From positions 359,257 through 423,256 of the forward strand of contig NW_019218018.1 in NCBI RefSeq assembly GCF_002571385.2: 64,000 bases of DNA, given 5' to 3'. Under the pieces are notes generated by a model that ran no database searches, had not been told where the DNA came from, and saw only the letters and a program-made list of their open reading frames with translations. Position 1 is the first letter of the stretch. The number at the start of each line of letters is the position of its first letter. The DNA comes from Stylophora pistillata (taxonomy: Eukaryota). The translations under genes and the position numbers were made by a program. Below, one piece after another: positions 21,845 through 22,570 of the stretch.

Positions 21845-22570
21845 TTAAATCGCCTGTCGGTTGACCATGGCCATTGACCAGAAACCTGGTGGACATGCGT
21901 GTCTGATGTCTCTTTTGGCTACACGACCTTTACTCTGCTGAGATTTCTTGACAGCCGTACTTCGCATTTGTTTTAACGTCATCTTCTTTTTACAAGCCCA
22001 CATTCCTGTCGGACAATTTTCAACGTCTCGTTTGCTTTTAAAAGAAGACTCCTTGGATGTCACGTTAATGTTAGAAGTCCCTTTAACCGGGAAAAGTGCA
22101 GCAAAATAATTATTTGTCCTAGGGACACTGCGTGCTACTATGCCATTTTTAGAATGCTTTTCAGCTGAACATGACCAAACCCCCGGTGGACATGCGTGGT
22201 TGGCGTCTCTTTTGGCCACACGAAGTATACTCTGCTGAGAGTTTTTTCCATCTGTATCAACATGTAACATCACGTTCTTTTCACAAGCCCACACTCCTGG
22301 CGGACAATTTTTAATGTCTCGTTTGCTTTTAAAAGAGAAGTTCATGGATCCTATGTTCATTTTGAGAGCCATTTTTACAGGGAAAAGGGCGGCATCAAAG
22401 GTATCCCTCGATCGCTTTCCAGTCTGACAGCTCCAGACTCCCGGAGGACAAGCCTCGGAATCGTGTCGAGTCGCTGATAGTTTTACTTTCCTCTTGATAT
22501 CGATGACGCCGGTACGAGCCAACATAATGGAACAGACAATAAAAATAACAAAAGTAACAAAAAGGTTCAT
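21845..22570 (-). CDS. Secreted CPPGxWxC peptide precursor, copy 2 (241 aa, five cassettes; GLWamide-like cyclic peptide prepropeptide)
   Basis: Intronless ORF from ATG 22570 with a hydrophobic signal peptide. Cassettes CPPGVWSC(QTGKR), CPPGVWAC, CPPGVWSC, CPTGMWAC(KKK), CPPGFWS. Four are preceded by KR-D. Internal DNA repeat period is about 291-297 nt. Confidence 0.88.
   Translation of the reverse strand: MNLFVTFVIFIVCSIMLARTGVIDIKRKVKLSATRHDSEACPPGVWSCQTGKRSRDTFDAALFPVKMALKMNIGSMNFSFKSKRDIKNCPPGVWACEKNVMLHVDTDGKNSQQSILRVAKRDANHACPPGVWSCSAEKHSKNGIVARSVPRTNNYFAALFPVKGTSNINVTSKESSFKSKRDVENCPTGMWACKKKMTLKQMRSTAVKKSQQSKGRVAKRDIRHACPPGFWSMAMVNRQAI

Follow-up and report, generated by a model that had tools for sequence, protein, structure and literature searches.

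A Stylophora pistillata polyprotein gene of the CP-x-G-x-W-x-C type: predicted disulfide-ring peptides, partial processing sites and coral relatives

Does a short gene of the coral Stylophora pistillata encode a precursor that releases four distinct cyclic peptides, only one of them amidated? The gene, here called copy 2, is a single-exon open reading frame at 21845..22570 on the minus strand of a 64,000-nucleotide stretch of contig NW_019218018.1 (the window), and it lies between two related frames, copies 1 and 3. With a probability of roughly 0.55 we regard copy 2 as a putative secreted prepropeptide of a hexacorallian CP-x-G-x-W-x-C family, whose rings would be cut out as disulfide signalling peptides with GPCRs as their predicted targets. 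Ring formation and cleavage at basic sites are transferred to copy 2 from relatives and the receptor link from a paralog, and the predicted function is that of a cnidarian cyclic-peptide precursor.

The 241 amino acids of copy 2 contain five cores in one frame, in the order A1-B1-A2-B2-A' that the earlier note had described. The predicted signal peptide (approximately residues 1-21, 22508..22570) has a hydropathy peak of 3.24 and was modelled as a confident helix over residues 2-19 (pLDDT 93-95 over residues 1-20), the N-terminal feature of the precursor family. Four cores are intact C-x6-C rings. The A1 cassette, HDSEACPPGVWSCQT-G-KR with a predicted amide, spans 22412..22465 and its CPPGVWSC ring occupies 22427-22450. 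B1 (DIKN-CPPGVWAC, 22283..22318, core start 22306) and A2 (DANHA-CPPGVWSC, 22169..22207, core start 22192) are each preceded by KR, and B2 (DVEN-CPTGMWAC, 21992..22027, core start 22015) is flanked by KR and KKK, all on the minus strand. B2 is followed by the basic segment KKKMTLKQMRSTAVKK (21944..21991, −), with a net charge of +7 and a predicted helix, the counterpart of the amphipathic helix of the family; the B-plus-helix profile of the STGKR subfamily scores 43.6 bits here. After B1 this helix is lost, the tail having a net charge of −1 and no dibasic site. The A' module (21848..21910, −) starts its core CPPGFWS at 21895 and has a single Cys. Aligned to A2 and to the copy-3 modules its ring region is 7 nt longer, so that the frame is lost before the second Cys and A' would be unable to form a ring.

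Seven CP.G.W motifs occur in the six frames of the window, compared to none in 38 and one in two of 40 Markov controls, and the motif density is therefore not due to chance. Besides the signal helix and the post-B2 helix (residues 199-212, pLDDT about 57-61) the AlphaFold model of copy 2 is disordered, with a mean pLDDT of 50.8. No Pfam family scored above cut-off for the frame or for five relatives, a PDB sequence search with copy 2 gave no match at E 10, and an ESM Atlas search with the relative P0146 gave no usable one. The exact 241-residue protein was absent from the protein collection searched, and a search for shorter forms returned five matches, none of them a copy-2 allele. A public model (P0002, Stylophora pistillata SpisGene12914) has the same sequence over residues 16-235; it omits the first 15 codons and joins copy 2 to copy 1 by a predicted GT..AG intron (window 21865 to approximately 19161, −). 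No reads support this intron, and the fusion is likely a prediction artefact.

The processing sites bear directly on the number of products. Basic sites are found at residues 26, 52, 83, 120, 180, 194, 208 and 219, and a single G-KR signal stands directly after A1, so that xx-G-KR follows one of the three A modules. Only B2 has a complete pair of flanking sites. A1 has its C-terminal site and, upstream, the single Arg of ATR before an initial His, which makes its N-terminal cut uncertain, while B1 and A2 possess N-terminal sites only: the next dibasic site lies 24 residues past B1 and 46 residues past A2. As neither B1 nor A2 has a near C-terminal dibasic site, two short cyclic peptides are cleanly predicted, and not the four that had been proposed. 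Copy 2 would enter the secretory pathway through its signal peptide, close its disulfides and be cleaved at KR or KK; disulfide closure was detected by mass spectrometry (MS), and such cleavage shown, in Nematostella relatives. An A1 peptide amidated at G-KR and B2 would be the sole short products with complete sites, while B1 and A2 would either keep a long C-terminal tail on release or require non-canonical trimming. The proposed start with Asp, four (B) or five (A) residues before the first Cys, applies to all four modules preceded by KR but not to A1. The A modules do not share a spacer starting with AALFPVK either: behind A2 the spacer opens with SAEKHSKNG, and AALFPVK sits 22 residues past the ring.

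The lone amide can be judged against the relatives, named ones coming from Pocillopora damicornis, P. meandrina, Oculina patagonica, Desmophyllum pertusum and Nematostella vectensis. We counted 160 rings in 68 coral relatives, 108 of A-type and 51 of B-type. The sequence xx-G-K/R follows 102 of the 108 A-type rings (mostly as CPPGVWTCST-G-KR, with 83 of 108 ending exactly in STGKR) and no B-type ring; a dibasic site within eight residues upstream is present for just five of the 108. In a flank-anchored count the A ring was intact in 87 of 92 cases. Given that 102 of 108 coral A modules carry the amide signal, the single one in copy 2 likely reflects loss in the lineage from an ancestral state with amidated A modules. 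The observation of a single amide signal is correct, but as designed diversity it is not borne out, the amide being a likely ancestral remnant.

In the Pocillopora-type proteins (n=127) the first rings are all broken (108 of 108). Their later A modules have the amide signal in 0 of 205, though both ring types are nearly always intact, A in 201 of 205 and B in 191 of 194. The nearest outgroup, P0023, is organized as A(G-KR)-B-helix-A(G-KP), and this layout makes it likely that an amide on the first A only predates the module duplication. In a midpoint-rooted tree of 23 B-A units (P0024, P0026 and P0158 were left out, having no unit under the pattern) both copy-2 units group with copy 1 (95/90), and copy 3 groups with the Pocillopora-type proteins (96/93), and this grouping suggests that the unit was duplicated twice independently. 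A plausible history would start from an A-B-helix-A precursor whose A modules were amidated, and the loss of the signal on the second A would have come first; a B-A unit would then have been duplicated on the Stylophora side, independently of the duplication in the Pocillopora-type proteins, and finally the B1 helix and A' would have eroded.

The duplication can also be seen within copy 2. Unit 1 (spacer-B1-tail-A2, 22172-22394, −) and unit 2 (spacer-B2-helix-A', 21875-22103, −) are 75.5% identical over 229 nt and differ by a dS of about 0.38. The distances B1-B2 (291 nt) and A2-A' (297 nt) agree with the period of 291-297 nt given in the earlier note. A1 and A2 are 258 nt apart, and the period therefore belongs to one internal B-A duplication rather than to the whole array. 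That a pair of modules was duplicated is in agreement with the alignment, the dS values and the unit tree; that two peptide types are ancestral is supported by the co-occurrence of W-T/S-C and W-V/A-C rings in Nematostella precursors.

To compare cassettes and spacers we used the window paralogs and protein-level variation in place of orthologs; two scans of metagenome contigs for ortholog DNA of P0023 and P0006 confirmed no locus. Between the units of copy 2 the rings have a dN of 0.09 and a dS of 0.37 (15 codons), the spacers 0.28 and 0.33 (43 codons) and the post-B segment 0.46 and 0.58; between copies 2 and 1 the ring values are 0.06 and 0.53. Fisher p was 0.025 for ring against all the rest, 0.083 for ring against spacer only and 0.088 for a third contrast. 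The rings of copy 2 are thus more conserved than its spacers, as had been claimed, with a consistent direction and low power, the dN/dS values being based on 15-16 ring codons and the relatives not being independent samples. Among 69 full-length Pocillopora-type proteins the column diversity is 0.047 in rings, 0.142 in spacers and 0.109 in the helix (permutation p 0.0025).

The closest described systems are from Nematostella. P0042 (E 7.6e-10) and P0066 (E 7.5e-5) matched, as did P0059, and comparison by eye suggests that the first two correspond to the precursors NVE21426 and NVE5329 (LOC116619142, LOC5508080). According to supplement 1 of PMC11087051, CP[PV]GIWVC peptides of both were detected by MS in the disulfide form, with ends at KK/KR, and the P0059-matching precursor likewise gave disulfide peptides ending at KK/KR. 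In the parts of that paper considered here these ring peptides all derive from the first module and are placed in an "uncertain" class, because the rings do not fragment. The MS data support the more general idea of a cleaved polyprotein of disulfide-ring peptides. Like copy 2, NVE21426 and NVE5329 combine mixed eight-residue rings (W-T-C and W-V-C) with a signal peptide and dibasic sites, and their penultimate ring, of the V type, is followed by a basic stretch. They differ from the coral family in T rings without the S-T-G-KR amide signal, in having no internal B-A duplication, and in a less similar helix, for which the helix-only profile score is negative or absent. The proposed orthology with copy 2 is based on motif type and on architecture rather than on a tree.

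The predicted action on a GPCR is derived from GLWL, which activates GPR18 with an EC50 of 9.0e-7 M, near micromolar; in the screen both linear and disulfide forms were active, at about 8000-9400 for GPR18 compared to about 200-460 for GPR21/29 (PMC11087051, in the parts considered). GLWL and copy 2 have in common a C-P-P-G-hydrophobic-W-x-C ring with a C-terminal tail, and differ in the pGlu N-terminus after Arg and the Leu at ring position 7 of GLWL. In the same parts of the paper GLWG, GLWGcc and CCa are library peptides without a receptor in the EC50 table, and the library list contains no peptides of the T/V type. The near-micromolar potency of GLWL and the presence of its precursor outside neuroglandular cells count against a signalling role.

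NvLWamide-like, predicted to release QCPPGLWGC (PMC6152798, in part), and GLWG share the ring size and the CPPG-x-W core with copy 2. GLWG is non-amidated and cut at KR/KK, and this precursor type differs from copy 2 in many near-identical W-G-C copies with short spacers; Nv242283, NVE21167 and P0059 are likely one and the same. We rejected orthology of copy 2 to it, as many W-G-C rings each with KR/KK are found not in copy 2 but in another S. pistillata gene (G000:C4, 1,140 kb; 11 CPPGVWGC copies), the likely counterpart. Membership in the GLWamide/GVWamide group was also rejected: the PPG[LV]W core is common to both, but GLWamides are linear and amidated directly after Trp (PMC7523074, in part), while the copy 2 cores run on as W-S/A-C or W-S-M, without W-G-K/R.

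The basic helix after B invites a different reading. A KKKRMLKQMLKTALK-like motif follows B in 62 of 68 relatives, a count that is partly circular and inflates helix conservation, as it was anchored on the helix itself in related sequences. An intact B ring precedes the helix in 21 of these 62. The helix has a hydrophobic moment of 0.71 compared to 0.36 for shuffled sequences and a charge of about +6.7, and outside the anchor its positions are 0.69 conserved, the B ring 0.65. That the helix outlasts the B ring across the family argues against selection on the cassettes solely: the earlier statement that selection acts on the released peptides fits the constrained rings of copy 2 but leaves out this element. 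Established knowledge of prohormones suggests that the helix, a second constrained element, is most likely a determinant of granule sorting or processing.

On sequence grounds the coral subfamily might instead have been recruited to defence, with microbes or the receptors of other animals as targets of the cationic helix (free or still joined to the B ring), of the rings, or of both. The charge and moment of the helix and its persistence beside broken B rings fit this idea. So do the tandem arrays, with three named models at nearby locus tags in Oculina patagonica and four on one contig in Desmophyllum pertusum; arrays in which copies erode are, in general, more characteristic of defence genes, a point against the signalling reading. 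A cone-snail venom-duct peptide has a CPPGLWC core (PMC12631695, in part); this contryphan-like Be828 (GCPPGLWC) holds CPPG-x-W in one disulfide loop, as predicted for copy 2, but in a seven-residue ring of a mollusc, and the likeness is likely convergent. The near-invariance of A, down to the exact STGKR end, is easier to reconcile with a fixed endogenous receptor than with an arms race, and copy 2 has lost the helix behind B1 and keeps a weakened one behind B2 (moments 0.29 and 0.43). We consider a defence role unlikely.

Expression and the neighbouring copies bear on whether copy 2 is functional at all. Copy 1 (18639..19208, −) has an A ring without the amide Gly (QTEKR), a B ring without the second Cys and a third module out of frame beyond a GA microsatellite; its allele P0003 keeps the B Cys missing from the window copy. 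Copy 3 (24214..24750, +), in divergent orientation and an ortholog of the Pocillopora-type proteins, retains both Cys but no prolines in its first ring, and no Cys in the other two. Copies 1 and 3 are eroded relatives of copy 2. Four studies under the same species label provided one raw RNA run each (9.7-12.9 million records per run, 2-26% of each run, 90% threshold); the depth on copies 1 and 2 was zero in all four, the window containing no positive-control gene, and copy 3 reached at most 0.26 in one bin overlapping its start. The mapped reads fell almost wholly on repeats. Reads at 23057-23924 were rejected as a gene signal, since they come from a repeat with dispersed copies (51 matches in the 40 candidates scored out of 3996). 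Nine further runs (X1-X9) share words with the window, six of them at <0.2, and were left out of the expression evidence; three contig-only runs share 0.28-0.55 of its words, a proportion of the whole stretch that is not placed on copy 2.

Copy 2 could accordingly be a silent or decaying duplicate within a functional family that no longer yields working peptides. Its own lesions (the A' frameshift, the lost B1 helix and two lost C-terminal sites, Pro-to-Thr in B2), the broken rings of both neighbours, the absence of reads in the four runs and a spacer dN/dS near 0.85 between its units would agree with this. Peptide genes are, however, often stage- or cell-restricted, and word shares of 0.28 in X2 (RNA on record) and 0.55 in X1 (RNA guessed) point the other way, those reads being unplaced. 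The frame remains free of stops over 232 codons, its four rings are intact and the ring dN/dS is about 0.25 or lower, and we regard decay as rather improbable. That non-canonical trimming at the C-terminus frees all four rings as distinct, short cyclic peptides, the A/B diversity itself being selected, seems very improbable, in spite of four intact rings, three of them after KR-Asp, of Pocillopora-type A rings persisting without an amide, and of the non-dibasic N-terminal and some monobasic C-terminal sites described for cnidarians (PMC11087051, section 5), because 24 residues without a dibasic site follow B1, the KK kept 3-5 residues downstream of most Pocillopora-type A rings is missing at A2, and C-terminal cuts are reported at basic sites only (PMC11087051, in the parts considered).

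Signalling by ring peptides remains our preferred reading, and copy 2 is the least representative member of the family; its main value is that it leads to the family and exemplifies module duplication together with amide loss. As a speculation that we ourselves think doubtful, stony corals might have expanded an anemone-type precursor into tandem arrays delivering two effectors per chain, an as yet undescribed hormone, a near-invariant cyclic amide of the CPPGVWTCST-NH2 type, for a GPR18-like receptor, and a cationic helix acting by itself in defence, with pocilloporids dropping the amide and duplicating B-helix-A twice independently. The amidated, helix-bearing and tandemly arrayed coral subfamily appears to be undescribed in the literature searched. 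Coral neuropeptide surveys centre on amidated linear peptides, and the CP-x-G-x-W-x-C family was not found in the searched text and readable supplements: a CPPG precursor is absent from the text passages and 10 of 11 supplements of PMC7523074 and from five supplements of PMC6756747, and section 11 of PMC12225738 has nothing identifiable as this family. Motif and accession searches, with subscription journals mostly outside their scope and some supplements not covered, returned no paper on the subfamily. The family provides a highly conserved candidate ligand in stony corals, together with a candidate receptor family (Nematostella GPR18).

The S. pistillata genome has at least eight CP-x-G-x-W-(x)-C precursors, including the three window copies, a lower bound, and this census is open to peptidomics and receptor assays. 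Two further family genes on the same contig, each with a terminal ring as its end, lie at G000:C235:254,400-254,780 and 277,450-277,830; in Desmophyllum both gene types likewise share one contig. Three more precursors lie within approximately 100 kb (G000:C4:1,037,800-1,048,100 and 1,140,200-1,140,900): besides the NvLWamide-like type mentioned above there is one with seven CPPGLWC-G-KKR (CCa type, predicted amide) and one with eight CP-x-GLWC. No separate gene turned up in this genome with a GLWL-like query.

Within the window the downstream flanks of copies 1 and 2 (16436-16912 and 21017-21500) are 71% alike, which indicates a segmental duplication. The region just past copy 1 (16945-18462) has a 247-nt tandem array and an inverted 227-nt copy, besides an N gap (17718-18235), and the assembly may therefore hide further copies. 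Between the divergent copies 2 and 3 lies a dispersed high-copy repeat (23198-23850) with a weak GIY-YIG match (E 3e-4), which we take to be Penelope-like. Upstream of copy 2 a candidate promoter element combines CAGCTG, presumably an E-box, with AATAAAA (22678..22699, −). The C[AG]GCTG and AATAAAA pair also occurs 105-135 nt upstream of copy 3 and, as CGGCTG, of copy 1; a sigma-70 promoter scan was set aside as irrelevant to an animal gene. NvLWamide-like marks a neuron subset, a point in favour of the signalling reading, and is described as an NvashA target (bioRxiv 10.1101/145623, in part), a parallel to the E-box-type motif that is weak.

Exons of a furin/PCSK-type proprotein convertase were found at 58023-63486 (−), with a P-domain (E 4.6e-28), furin-like Cys-rich repeats and a C-terminal hydrophobic stretch; their linkage to the peptide cluster, about 35 kb away, may be due to chance. 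The remaining features are tandem BTB-BACK-Kelch genes, a DUF4518 exon and a Ras-family exon (34086-39909, 47258-47839 and 53229-53678, all +), and an exon just upstream of the window that is presumably aldehyde-dehydrogenase-like.
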